Source: Minisyncoccota bacterium (GTDB taxonomy: Bacteria; Patescibacteriota; Minisyncoccia; Phycocordibacterales; Phycocordibacteraceae). Taken from it: a stretch of DNA of 64,000 nucleotides. The notes beneath the pieces are model-generated. The model had not been told where the DNA came from. It did no database searches and was given only the letters and a program-made list of their open reading frames with translations. The DNA is taken from assembly GCA_028695415.1 (NCBI GenBank), contig JAQVIY010000002.1:4883-68882 (forward strand). The letters run 5' to 3'. The number at the start of each line of letters is the position of its first letter. Positions within the stretch are counted from its first letter, which is position 1. Shown here piece after piece: positions 49,903 through 53,645 of this stretch. The position numbers were made by a program, and so were the translations under genes.

Positions 49903-50810
49903 AGCGTAATTCCTTGTCGGGTAAGTTCCGACGTGCACGAATGGTGTAATGAGTGGGAAACTGTCTCGAGGACTCGCTCGGTGAAAATGCACTTCCGGTG
50001 AAGATGCCGGATACCTGTAGTTAGACGAAAAGACCCCAGGAGCTTTACTATAGCTTCGTATTGGCACTGCGGGATTCATGCGTAGCATAGGTGGGAGGAT
50101 TTGAAGCATTGGTTTCGGCTGGTGTGGATCCGTCAGTGAAATACCACTCTTGAATTTTGCAGTGTCTAACCCCGTGAGCGTAACTCACGGGGGACCGTGC
50201 GTGGCAGGTAGTTTTGGTGGGGCGCTATCCTCCTAAAAAGTAACGGAGGAGTCTATTAAGGTTCTCTAGGCGCGAATGGAAACCGTGCCGATAGTGTAAT
50301 GGCATAAGAGAGCTTAACTGTAAGGGGTACATCCCGAGCAGATGCGAAAGCAGAGCATAGTGAACCGATGGTACGCCTTAGATGCGGCCAGAGATTAACG
50401 GATATAAGTTACCCTGGGGATAACAGGCTAGTTCCGCCCAAGCGTCCATAGCGACGGCGGAGTTCGGCACCTCGATGTCGGCTCACCTTAGCGCGGGGCT
50501 GGAGAAGGTCCCAAGCGTATGGCTGTTCGCCATTTAAAAAGGTACGCGAGCTGGGTTCAAACCGTTCAGCAACTGACTTCGGTCGGTGATTGAACGGTTT
50601 GAACCCCGAGGCAAATGTTAGCTACGTGGAGACGTAGTGTGAATAAACGACAACTCACGGCGGTCTCGACTAGGAATAGTCGAGAAGCAAATCAACTGAT
50701 ATCGGTGGAACCCAGCCCCAGTTTTAAAATGCATAAAACTGGAGCTGGGCAATACCGAGGGAATTTGTCTTATGTGCTTCATTGAGGAATGTTCTTTGAG
50801 AATGTATTGC

Positions 50811-50887
50811 GGAGAAGTCGCCAAGCGGTTAAGGCACCAGACTTTCAAATCTGGCATGCGAAGGTTCGAACCCTTCCTTCTCCTCCA
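50811..50887 (+). ncRNA. tRNA-Gln-like element with 8-nt anticodon loop (CTTTCAAA) and encoded CCA, nested in 23S intron 2 inside a 19-bp inverted repeat
   Basis: Acceptor GGAGAAG/CTTCTCC, D arm GCCAAGCGGTTAAGGC (as in bacterial tRNA-Gln), anticodon stem CCAGA/TCTGG, variable CATGC, T arm GAAGG-TTCGAAC-CCTTC, discriminator T plus CCA. Flanked by CTTATGTGCTTCATTGAGGA (50769-50788) and its complement (50914-50932). Confidence 0.5.
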
Positions 50888-51104
50888 TACATTTTCTGGC
50901 AACTTAGGTTGCCTCCTCAATGAAGCACATAAACGAAGCCCGTAGAGACTGAATGTTGATCATCCCGCCCCACTTTTGTCATTAGGACAGAGGCGGGGAG
51001 GGCTCACATAATTAGATGTACCTCGTTATTCCAATGACGGCGGTGTATCAAAAGTGGAGCTGGATGGTGTTACAGTCCGATCCCGCCAGTAATGGCGGCG
51101 TTAT

Positions 51105-51140
51105 TGGGCAGCTAGAGCCTAAAGCCTAGTGCCCAATAGC
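51105..51140. repeat. CTAG-rich repeat (copy 3) near the 3' end of 23S intron 2
   Basis: GCTAGAGCCTAAAGCCTAGTGCCCAATAGC shares GCCTAAAGCCTAG with the blocks at about 32022 and 35556. Confidence 0.45.
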
Positions 51141-51212
51141 TACGTAATGCGTGAGACAGGTTGGTCTCCTATCTACTACAGGCGTTGATTCTTGAGGGGG
51201 GTTGTCCCTAGT

Positions 51213-52068
51213 AAAATATTGCTACTTCAGAGAGAGATCTCTGATGACAACGCTGCTTATAACGGTGGAGTCTAAGGCGCTTCTGGTTTTAGAGGTCGAT
51301 ATCCGACGGTCCAGTGGATATTGACCTCGCTTGAGGACCAGAATGACGCTATGATAATACCGTGGGAAGTCGATTAAGTATTACCAATGCAGATCTCGCG
51401 TATATCGCGGGCTTCTTGGATGGAGATGGAAGTCTCATGTTCCAATTAAAGAAGCGCGCAGATTCGACCAAAGGAGTGCGTTTTATGGCGACGATATGTC
51501 TTTATCAAGATACTCGCCATGATGCGCCGCTCTCGTGGATTCGAACGCGACTCAAATGCGGCTATGTTTCTAAACGGAACGATGGCATGACAGAATTACG
51601 CATCAATGGCTTCTCTCAAGTGAGGGAGACCGTAGAAGCGCTTCTGCCGTATCTTCGTTTCAAGAAGAAACAAGCAAGACTACTCATTCGGGCATGTAAA
51701 TTGCTCGAACAAGAGACGCTCCGCACCATGAAGTCGAGAGATATACGAAAGATTGTTGATTTGCTGTTGCTCATACAGAATGAAAACTATATGAGCAAAA
51801 AGCGAAAGACGAAAGAAGAACTGCATCACATGCTTGGTTTGACCCCGTAACGACTTACGTTGAAAGATACGTGGACTCATAGGTAGAGGAATCGTTCCGC
51901 AGGCAGCTCGCTAACGCGACTGCACTTGGATTTTCTAAAGCGGAGTACCGCTAAGAAAATCTCGGCGAGAACGACAGCTCCTATGGGTAAGATGCAGCCA
52001 TCCTAACTTCGCACAGGCGGAAAAGGATGAAGATATAGTCTGAGCTCCTGGAAACAGGGGAAGTATCG
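51213..52068 (+). mobile_element. 23S insertion 3: group I intron carrying a LAGLIDADG homing endonuclease ORF, inserted on the 5' side of the sarcin-ricin loop (E. coli about 2656/2657)
   Basis: Joining exons gives CCCTAGT|ACGAGAGGACCGG, matching CCTAGTACGAGAGGACCGG. Intron ends in G. Conserved group I S-element AAGATATAGTC at 52030-52040. Confidence 0.7.
51362..51850 (+). CDS. single-motif LAGLIDADG homing endonuclease (I-CreI-like size, 162 aa) encoded within 23S intron 3
   Basis: LAYIAGFLDGDGSLMF motif. About 160 aa, typical of homodimeric LAGLIDADG enzymes. AT-rich compared with the rRNA exons. Confidence 0.75.
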   Translation: MGSRLSITNADLAYIAGFLDGDGSLMFQLKKRADSTKGVRFMATICLYQDTRHDAPLSWIRTRLKCGYVSKRNDGMTELRINGFSQVRETVEALLPYLRFKKKQARLLIRACKLLEQETLRTMKSRDIRKIVDLLLLIQNENYMSKKRKTKEELHHMLGLTP

Positions 52069-52420
52069 ACGAGAGGACCGGGATGAACTGACCTCTGGTC
52101 TATCGGCTGTCGCGCCAGCGGCACCGCCGAGTAGCTATGTCGGGTGCCGATAACCGCTGAAAGCATATAAGCGGGAAACGGGCCCCAAGATTAGGAATCG
52201 TTATGAGACTCGTAGGAGATGACTACGTTGATAGGCTCTAGATGGAAGCGCAGTAATGCGTTGAGTCGAGGAGTACTAATATGTCCAGTCTCTCGTGCGG
52301 AACTCTGTCTAACACAATCGTTCTGTTTGCGTTTTGATAATTACCTATGCGTTTCGTAGTCACCGACCCTACGTCGCTCGCTTCGCGAGCTATGAAGGGT
52401 AAAAACACTTTCGAGTGTTC

Positions 52421-52539
52421 GGTTCTGGTGGTTCGGCGGCGGGGTCATACCCGTTCTCATTCCGAACACGGCAGTCAAGCCCGCTAGCGGCGATGGTACT
52501 CATCGTTTCAGATGGGGAGAGTAGCTAACCGCCAGAACC
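52421..52539 (+). rRNA. rrf: 5S ribosomal RNA
   Basis: Terminal helix GGTTCTGGTGG / CCGCCAGAACC. Internal CCGAACACGGCAGTCAAGCCC and AGATGGGGAGAGTAGC. Confidence 0.8.
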
Positions 52540-52722
52540 GAGTACTCGATATTTGTTTTTGAGATGTTTGTAATAATTGGATGGGGAGAGTAAGAAAGAA
52601 ACGCCTCGGAAGGCGTTTTTTCTTTCTGCTGCACTTGCTTCAAGAAAGCGAAAGAAGACTCTCGCTTTCTTTCGCTTCGTTTGCAGTAGCTAACCGCCAG
52701 AACCGAGTACTCGATTTTTGTT
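52521..52722. repeat. duplicated 5S 3'-end fragments bracketing an insertion of about 120 nt that contains a terminator hairpin
   Basis: GTAGCTAACCGCCAGAACCGAGTACTCGAT(A)TTTTGTT occurs at 52521-52560 and 52683-52722. GGATGGGGAGAGTA at 52581-52594 repeats 5S AGATGGGGAGAGTA. Hairpin AAACGCCTCGGAAGGCGTTTTTT at 52600-52622. Confidence 0.55.
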
Positions 52723-52735
52723 CCTTCAGATTAAG

Positions 52736-52840
52736 CGGGGTGTAGCTTAGGTAAGTTAAGTGCGGCAAGCACTCTGTCCTGGGTGACAACGTCCGGGAGC
52801 TGTACAGAGGACGCAGGTTCGAATCCTGTCACCCCGACCA
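52736..52840 (+). ncRNA. atypical tRNA-like gene (about 102 nt plus encoded CCA) followed by an intrinsic terminator
   Basis: 7-bp acceptor CGGGGTG/CACCCCG, discriminator A, CCA, canonical T arm GCAGG-TTCGAAT-CCTGT. About 27 extra nt relative to class I tRNAs. A possible CTG (Gln) anticodon-loop parse needs an enlarged D loop and a 21-nt insert. Terminator GCACGCCGCGC-TTGC-GCGCGGCGTTTT at 52842-52868. Confidence 0.45.
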
Positions 52841-52880
52841 TGCACGCCGCGCTTGCGCGGCGTTTTGCTATACTGTTCGC

Positions 52881-53645
52881 ATGGATTGGGCAACGCGACG
52901 GCGGTTCATAATTCTTCTTATTATCGGCGCGATCATGGTCGCGTTCTTCGCGACGGTGCTTATCGCCACATTCTCGAAGACGCCGACCTGCTCCGATGGC
53001 ATACAGAATCAGGATGAGACGGGTGTTGACTGCGGTGGTTCATGCCGGTACCTCTGCATAGCAGAACAGCAGCCGCCGACCGTTCTGTTCACCAAGGCTA
53101 TCGGCAACGGCCTCGGTCGTACGGATGTCGTCGCATCAATCGAGAATAAGAACGCCGCCGCTGCGGCAAAGAATGTCCCGTATCGCATCACGCTCTACGG
53201 TACCGGCCAGTTCCTTATCCAAGAGGTTACCGGCTCGTTCGACCTTCCACCCGGCGCGACGGTGCCGCTCTACATCCCCAACATATCTTCAGGGAAACAA
53301 ACCGACATAAAAGCCTTCCTCACCATTGCGACCTCTTCGCTCCAATGGTTTTCTCTGTCGCCCTCCGCTCTCCGTGCACCGCTCGTATCGAACACGACTC
53401 AGGGAGGTATCTCGAACACACCGCGTATTGAAGCCATTCTCACCAATCCGACCATCATTCCATTCACTGATGTACGAGTCGTGGTCGTCGTTCGCGATAC
53501 GCACGGGGACGTTATAGCCGCGTCAGAGACGATCGTTCCCTCCATTCCAGCACAAGGGCAGGCGAATGCGACCTTTACGTGGAATAGCGCGTTTCCGAGC
53601 GCGCCTGCCGCAATAGAGGTTACCCCGATTGTTTCGCTTCCGTGA
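52881..53645 (+). CDS. hypothetical membrane-anchored protein with Cys-rich segment
   Basis: N-terminal TM helix (FIILLIIGAIMVAFFATVLIATF). TCSDGIQNQDETGVDCGGSCRYLC, then Thr/Pro-rich beta-like sequence. Confidence 0.4.
   Translation: MDWATRRRFIILLIIGAIMVAFFATVLIATFSKTPTCSDGIQNQDETGVDCGGSCRYLCIAEQQPPTVLFTKAIGNGLGRTDVVASIENKNAAAAAKNVPYRITLYGTGQFLIQEVTGSFDLPPGATVPLYIPNISSGKQTDIKAFLTIATSSLQWFSLSPSALRAPLVSNTTQGGISNTPRIEAILTNPTIIPFTDVRVVVVVRDTHGDVIAASETIVPSIPAQGQANATFTWNSAFPSAPAAIEVTPIVSLP

Follow-up and report, generated by a model that had tools for sequence, protein, structure and literature searches.

An oversized tRNA-like gene behind the 5S rRNA gene of a Minisyncoccota bacterium, possibly a non-decoding pseudo-tRNA

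Behind the 5S rRNA gene of a Minisyncoccota bacterium, we found a tRNA-like element of 105 nucleotides (positions 52736-52840, forward strand) that is a tRNA-derived gene, its homology to tRNA being more than chance. It comprises 102 nt through the discriminator, followed by an encoded CCA; all positions are those of the whole stretch of DNA that was analyzed, which is 64,000 nt long and is called the window hereafter. We propose, with a probability of about one half, that this element is a degenerating and non-decoding derivative (a pseudo-tRNA) of a tRNA gene from the distal end of the rRNA operon.

The Rfam covariance model of tRNA (RF00005) matched positions 52736-52837 with 39.9 bits, for a gathering score of 29 (E = 5.8e-5 over the whole 64-kb window and 4.8e-7 locally), and its alignment accommodates the surplus as insertions, 16 nt long in the D loop and 32 nt long in the anticodon arm. 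A preliminary description of this DNA had reported an oversized tRNA-like gene after the 5S with a textbook 3' half, and the sequence is indeed as described; the surplus, then put at about 27 nt, was measured as 28 nt by comparison with the normal-size homologues of 77 nt. ARAGORN was run in default, intron, relaxed-score, tmRNA and mitochondrial modes. The default mode did not report the element, and the intron mode (-i) gave a poor Pro(cgg) model with a 25-nt "intron" at 31/32 that works only with C33, a D stem of 3 bp and a variable loop of 9 nt; the other models were Arg(ccg), its intron being 23 nt long, and a 94-nt form without a name. These models are poor and mutually inconsistent. When Rfam was searched for tRNA, tRNA-Sec and tmRNA, as had been suggested, only tRNA scored above gathering and the extra nucleotides stayed unexplained: Rfam gave no tRNA-Sec match, ARAGORN -m found no tmRNA in the element and the sole Rfam match of that kind was to permuted tmRNA (10.5 bits, E = 7). 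The group I intron model (RF00028) did not match the element or its homologue at locus L025 at E <= 10. Judging from these family models, the extra nucleotides would belong to no known RNA family. Since we found no second copy of the insert elsewhere in the 64-kb window, it is not a repeated mini-element there.

The element reads, in order, CGGGGTG-TA-GCTT...GCAGG-TTCGAAT-CCTGT-CACCCCG-A-CCA. The 5' strand of the acceptor stem (52736-52742) pairs with CACCCCG at 52830-52836 in seven perfect base pairs, with C1 paired to G72; the T arm (GCAGG-TTCGAAT-CCTGT, 52813-52829) is canonical, and the discriminator A (52837) and the CCA (52838-52840) are encoded. The combination of C1-G72 and A73 corresponds to what we take, from established identity rules, to be the identity pattern of tRNA-Pro. 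U8, A14 and a G15-C48-type pair are further tRNA features, the acceptor/T arrangement is 7/5 and the variable region has 3-5 nt. The 3' end ACCA is common to all four homologous copies (4/4), and a 3' CCA is absent from four of the five canonical tRNA genes of the window. Those that do not encode it are the Arg, Leu, Val and Leu genes at 1911-6913; tRNA-His, an odd tRNA borne by a 23S intron and the post-5S element do.

The other half of the element is ambiguous, as had been noted before, with competing D stems and no canonical anticodon loop. In the D-arm region (52745-52770), GCTT (52745-52748) can pair with either of two partners. Pairing with AAGC (52767-52770) leaves an 18-nt loop and, together with the stem CTCTG/CAGAG, is the Rfam alignment, and pairing with AAGT (52758-52761) leaves a normal 9-nt loop and aligns with the L025 homologue. 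The preliminary description gave the former, as well as an extra hairpin GTGC-GGCAA-GCAC, both of which exist in the element, and overlooked the GCTT/AAGT parse. The D loop, be it AGGTAAGTT or the 18-nt one, is without the usual G18G19 placement and context, and the D region differs from those of the relatives at 10-11 of 19 positions, whereas the relatives differ among themselves at only 1-3 of 19. The optional hairpin GTGC-GGCAA-GCAC (52760-52772) forms in both the MFE and the centroid fold and cannot coexist with full D-stem pairing; its stability does not exceed that of shuffled sequence (z = -0.85). The expanded "anticodon" arm (52772-52809), whose stability does not reach significance (z = -1.2), has an outer stem CTCTGT/ACAGAG, an inner hairpin TCCTGGGT-GACAAC-GTCCGGGA (52777-52798) and, in the folds, a single 3' bulge of 5-6 nt. 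Its boundary motif TGTACAGAGGA (52801-52811) is identical at 11 of 11 positions to the 188-nt L025 homologue. The middle region of the element is no stabler than shuffled sequence (z = -0.6 to -1.2), and the centroid fold of the element is a five-stem junction.

When all hairpins with loops of 6-9 nt were enumerated, none in the element had a loop of 7 nt in which U33 is combined with a purine at position 37, so that the element as encoded cannot be an ordinary decoding tRNA. The strings TCCGGGA and CCTGGGT are present, not as stem-closed 7-nt loops, and would need C33. Neither CAT nor a GGG/CCC stem occurs within the element. A lack of TCA, claimed earlier with selenocysteine in mind, holds for the loops, none of which contains UCA, but TCA does occur in the 3' strand of the acceptor stem. 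Excision points were also placed by hand, with trials of a duplicated "GTA" target in L025 and of the Tyr-like loops CTGTACA and ATGTACA, and none restored a canonical anticodon arm in a cloverleaf consistent across the window, L023 and L025.

The element lies about 20 nt after a copy of the 3' end of the 5S gene. The 5S rRNA gene itself (52424-52537, forward strand; RF00001, 72.3 bits) is separated from the element by a 165-nt block with a terminator-like hairpin, whereas the corresponding gap at loci L023, L025 and L035 is ~20 nt. This block contains a split partial duplicate of the 5S 3' end (52580-52715, forward strand, made of 52580-52592 and 52685-52715), interrupted by a 92-nt insert that carries the terminator-like hairpin (52596-52621); blocks homologous to the split duplicate are present in L031 and L021. 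No sigma-70-like promoter was found upstream of the element.

Repeats of the 5S 3' end, AGTAGCTAACCGCCAGAACCGAGTACTCGA, also occur downstream of the gene in several related genomes, the sites being window 52511-52715, L021:1418-1559, L031 ~960-1100, L025 ~505-540 and L029:2830-2905. A homologous ~92-nt insert with a bidirectional terminator-like hairpin divides the repeat at three of these sites, those of the window, L021 and L031, and in other relatives such repeats bracket cargo comprising patatin, RelB/YafQ (toxin-antitoxin) and hypothetical genes. This pattern suggests that the 5S 3' end is a hot spot of integration or recombination in these genomes.

On its 3' side, the element is followed by a terminator-like hairpin (52844-52863) and a T run (to 52871, forward strand) that merges into TGCTATACT, a conserved promoter-like motif just 5' of the ATG of an ORF at 52881-53645. 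The preliminary description had seen an intrinsic terminator after the CCA; hairpin and T run are there, but they are not specific to the element. Because the same terminator-plus-promoter block stands directly 3' of the 5S in L022 and L032, both without a tRNA, the terminator is not evidence for expression of the element and belongs to the operon/ORF junction instead. It lends no support to a tRNA-derived regulatory RNA, which the preliminary description offered as an alternative and which the element may be.

Homologues of this ORF carry the names Parcubacteria, Paceibacterota, Kaiserbacteria and Minisyncoccia, which marks the host as a CPR bacterium. Its product of 254 aa has no Pfam match, and the gene is widely conserved adjoining FtsW in Parcubacteria. 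The motif TTTTGCTATACT (window 52864-52883), which is extended -10-like, occupies the same position in L022, L023, L029-L033 and L035, its 3' end lying 7-8 nt ahead of the ATG of this ORF in every relative. The mRNA may therefore be leaderless, with its first nucleotide at or close to the start codon.

The corresponding loci of relatives were fetched via homologues of the protein encoded by this neighboring ORF. Six relatives that have the whole interval on a contig carry no tRNA between the 5S and the ORF: L022 and L021, whose neighboring proteins are 91% and 90% identical to that of the window, L031 and L032 (67% each), L026 (65%) and L029 (63%). Several of them have cargo genes in this slot, between 5S-3'-end repeats. 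Three other loci have an occupied slot. In L035, it holds a canonical initiator tRNA-fMet (CAU) with C1xA72 and G29-31:C39-41 (Rfam, 63.7 bits). In L023, it holds a 77-nt tRNA (L023:58-134; Rfam, 52.3 bits) called Pro(AGG), with G33, A37 and the loop UGAGGAA; G33 and A37 are very unusual for a bacterial tRNA-Pro, and this tRNA may itself be non-canonical or decaying. In L025 (L025:117-304; GCA_024654305.1, JANLIU010000068.1), it holds a 188-nt tRNA-like gene with canonical acceptor, D and T arms and a 111-nt insert in place of the anticodon loop, which ARAGORN and Rfam did not detect and which gave no group I match. The L025 insert folds with significant stability (z = -3.4, and z = -4.0 for the whole element) and prolongs the anticodon stem as a three-way structure; it also holds a T-arm-like GGGTTCGGTCCC and a stretch like the 5S-tRNA spacer of L035. 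Since leaders (including a TTCTTT motif), trailers, variable loops and T arms are alike, the genes of the window, L023, L025 and L035 are homologous occupants of one slot. Conservation in related genomes, which the preliminary description had brought up, was found in part, with homologous copies in L023, L025 and L035 and absence from six relatives.

When GTDB genomes and JGI metagenomes were scanned directly at the DNA level, no homologue of the whole element came up. A scan of genome contigs with a degenerate pattern of tRNA-Pro ends and a wide gap gave only tRNA-Pro genes of the ordinary kind, containing N runs, duplications or inserts in the T region, and archaeal intron-bearing tRNAs, none with homology in the middle, and scans of viral contigs and phage BLAST gave nothing relevant to the element. 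A scan of metagenome contigs anchored on the D arm and the T loop hit a single class II tRNA, archaeal in origin and interrupted by a long intron (L017:6250-6441 on Ga0209211_10002751, the same as L018), which adjoins a ribosomal protein L37e gene and has the anticodon loop TTCTAGA (CUA, amber-reading) and an intron of ~80 nt. We rejected it as a relative: what it has in common with the element is the T arm and an 18-nt AT-rich string, TAGCTTAGGTAAGTTAAG, located in the intron. Given the number of tRNA genes scanned, about one match of this kind is expected by chance, and the likeness is probably coincidental.

Comparison of the four copies (window, L023, L025 and L035) showed that pairing is kept in 98.4% of the cells of their acceptor, D and T stems and that six stem pairs are changed on both sides, which no shuffle or register slide equaled. 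Compensatory changes affect acceptor pairs 4-69 and 5-68, acceptor pairing being kept in all homologues, and T-arm pairs 50-64 and 51-63 covary. The search for covarying pairs proposed earlier was thus fruitful for the acceptor, D and T stems, but the anticodon regions of the four copies gave no common structure. Because the stems are 98.4% paired with six compensatory pairs, we conclude that structure was under selection through most of the divergence, and since the gene is absent from six relatives, including those with neighboring proteins of 90-91% identity, it is dispensable. The edges of the expanded region agree between the window and L025 at 7 of 11 positions on the 5' side (p ~0.01) and 11 of 11 on the 3' side, L023 and L035 being far lower. 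The copies do not diverge evenly along their length, the differences being clustered in the D/anticodon half (Fisher p ~0.01).

A degenerating gene of this kind could have arisen as follows. An ancestor of this Parcubacteria lineage would have had a tRNA gene at the distal end of its 23S-5S operon, and indels would have disrupted the lower half of this dispensable copy, the D region accounting for ~9 nt of them and the anticodon arm for ~19-21 nt; an equivalent view is that the element may be an internally deleted remnant of a longer, L025-like insert. Insertion of the 5S-3'-repeat block with its terminator would have uncoupled the gene from transcription of the rRNA. Its RNA, if one is made at all, could still be cut by RNase P and have a CCA end, while codon reading would be impossible. 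The pseudo-tRNA reading is supported by the 16-nt and 32-nt insertions that Rfam needs, by an unstructured middle without any U33/R37 loop, by the empty slot of six relatives and the anticodon regions of the other three copies, which all differ, and also by the aberrant D region, the 165-nt terminator-bearing block and the lack of a sigma-70-like promoter. Against it stand the 98.4% pairing with six double changes, the ACCA of all four copies and the focus of divergence on the D/anticodon half, which simple neutral decay does not predict; the likeness of the edges in the window and L025 also hints that an expanded form persisted while the stems covaried.

The rRNA operon contains another odd tRNA. 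In the 23S rRNA gene (window 50563-52330), the Rfam gathering match stops at 50606, and since exon sequence then resumes twice, at 51149-51213 and from 52070 to ~52330, at least two introns are present. The second one (51214-52069) interrupts the sarcin-ricin loop region and carries a LAGLIDADG endonuclease gene (51362-51850; PF00961, E = 5.7e-9) and a sub-threshold group I core (51922-52061, 29.2 bits). A tRNA-Gln-like gene with an encoded CCA lies in a 23S intron at 50811-50887 (Rfam tRNA, 58.4 bits). Its anticodon loop CUUUCAAA has 8 nt, ARAGORN gives its anticodon as "ttca" and a perfect 19-nt inverted repeat brackets it (50770-50788 and 50914-50932); the homologous 23S intron of L031 is without this insert. 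These features would suit a tRNA that reads UGA or a quadruplet, or else a mobile cassette carrying a tRNA.

Among the other things that the post-5S element may be, the main candidate is a maintained, non-decoding tRNA-like RNA in which the acceptor/T minihelix, the CCA and the elbow are selected and the anticodon arm is free to expand; such an RNA might be a handle for RNase P or 3'-end processing, a substrate of a non-ribosomal aminoacyl-tRNA enzyme, or a regulator. The six compensatory pairs and the 98.4% pairing argue for it, as do the two expanded alleles (28 nt in the window, 111 nt in L025) with their common insert boundaries, the strong structure of the L025 insert and an ACCA kept although most tRNA genes of the window encode no CCA. 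Pseudo-tRNAs with cellular roles also exist, tRNA-Other of Bacillus cereus being one (PMC3399842). We nevertheless find this explanation somewhat unlikely: the element is missing from most relatives, the closest included, the expansions of the window and L025 are without common structure and that of the window is not significantly structured, the conserved D-loop sequence is lost in the window copy, a terminator-like hairpin stands upstream with no promoter found, and the integrity of the top half could instead result from gene conversion with a genuine tRNA-Pro elsewhere. Rather unlikely, too, is the broader proposal that Parcubacteria rRNA operons end in a hitherto undescribed class of bacterial tRNA-like RNAs. 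Selection would preserve their acceptor/T minihelix, elbow and CCA, and in place of the anticodon loop they would carry an expansion other than a group I intron that varies from lineage to lineage. Such RNAs would either represent tRNA intervening sequences of a new type or be derived from tRNA without decoding.

Oversized tRNA-Pro genes met in the genome scan were clearly assembly duplications or N-filled (L010, L014-L016), which brings to mind that the element, too, may be a chimera of assembly or an artefact of internal duplication. However, the Logan assembly of run SRR22315504 (L001), made independently, contains the identical element sequence, which is therefore not an assembler-specific artefact; the element also has no internal tandem repeat, L025 offers an expanded homologue, and we give the artefact very little credence. 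A decoding tRNA whose surplus is removed after transcription, by way of a new short bacterial intron or intervening sequence or of a degenerate group I intron, would fit with the group I introns that often lie in anticodon loops in Patescibacteria and hide tRNA genes from annotation tools (PMC13011429). Group I introns are also found in the 23S gene of the same operon, and ARAGORN -i can force the Pro(CGG) model with its 25-nt intron. That model requires its C33, short D stem and 9-nt variable loop, however, and a group I core able to splice itself would be much larger than these inserts of 21-28 nt (111 nt in L025), in line with the lack of an RF00028 match. Moreover, neither the enumeration nor the manual trials gave a pair of excision points that leaves a loop with U33 and R37, and the folds contain no bulge-helix-bulge motif, whose endonuclease bacteria are not known to possess; we consider such splicing improbable. 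The preliminary description had put forward an unconventional tRNA-Gln, with CTG plus a 21-nt insert, tied to the tRNA-Gln-like gene of the 23S intron. The stem CTCTG/CAGAG exists and is followed by TCCTGGG, but the loop of the CTG parse has C33 or G33, C1-G72 with A73 is the pattern of tRNA-Pro and not that of tRNA-Gln, and the slot homologues are fMet and Pro-like. The element and the tRNA at 50811-50887 are not similar in sequence, and the rRNA operon in which both lie is the only link found between them, so that a glutamine tRNA is most improbable here.

If the element is a relic, as in the pseudo-tRNA reading, it would be a clear example of a redundant distal rRNA-operon tRNA gene that decays in a reduced CPR genome, would show why tRNA finders disagree and would bear on how the completeness of a genome's tRNA set is judged. 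If the expanded forms are maintained, they would represent a non-group-I kind of tRNA expansion in bacteria. The size series of 77, 105 and 188 nt with a covarying top half is a lead worth following.

Compared with known kinds of RNA, the element is within the tRNA homology family by score and without the features that define a decoding tRNA: its length is outside 72-95 nt, it has no canonical D loop with G18G19 after an alpha region of 3-5 nt, and it lacks the 5-bp anticodon stem with a 7-nt loop, U33 and a purine at 37. With bacterial tRNA-Pro and other class I tRNAs it shares the 7-bp acceptor stem, C1-G72, A73, CCA and the TTCGAAT T arm, the ends being identical in many bacterial tRNA-Pro genes; unlike them, it has 105 instead of ~77 nt and no 5-bp/7-nt anticodon arm, no G18G19 and no NGG anticodon (G35, G36) followed by G37 in a canonical loop. 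Genes for tRNAs distal to the 5S are known in rRNA operons, for example in E. coli rrnC/D/H. The 5S-distal tRNAs of L035 and L023 are homologous to the element in position, leader, trailer, terminator, D/T arm and variable loop. In contrast to the initiator tRNA of L035, the element has C1-G72 instead of C1xA72, no CAU, a disrupted lower half without the three G-C pairs at 29-31:39-41, and a terminator block before it.

In Patescibacteria, tRNAs with group I introns in the anticodon loop, including tRNA-Met at position 33/34, have been described (Nakagawa et al. 2026, PMC13011429), group I self-splicing being the known mechanism there (PMC13011429). The element resembles them in that it comes from the same phylum, has an insert in the anticodon region that hides the gene and neighbors a 23S gene with group I introns, but its insert has 21-28 nt (111 nt in L025), not the hundreds (usually >200 nt) of group I introns, and there is no group I core, no RF00028 match and no U/G splice-site logic. 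It also has none of the marks of tRNA-Sec or allo-tRNAs (8/5, 9/4, 8/4 or 9/3 arrangement, long variable arm, UCA for Sec) or of tmRNA (tRNA-like domain with tag reading frame and pseudoknots). Archaeal and eukaryal bulge-helix-bulge introns are similar in insert size and approximate position; however, the host here is bacterial, no such motif (two 3-nt bulges with a 4-bp helix between them) can be drawn and excision yields no canonical tRNA. Pseudo-tRNAs and allo-tRNA-like genes comprise tRNA-Other of B. cereus, a pseudo-tRNA adjoining mobile DNA (PMC3399842), and degenerate allo-tRNA-like genes with possible five-stem junctions (PMC7609411). They have no sequence relationship with the element, which has the 7/5 arrangement whereas allo-tRNAs have 8/4 or 9/3, but like them it is tRNA-shaped and probably non-decoding, sits at a hot spot of cargo insertion and has a five-stem junction as its centroid fold. 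By analogy, then, the element would functionally resemble most closely the pseudo-tRNAs and irregular tRNA-like genes found beside mobile DNA.
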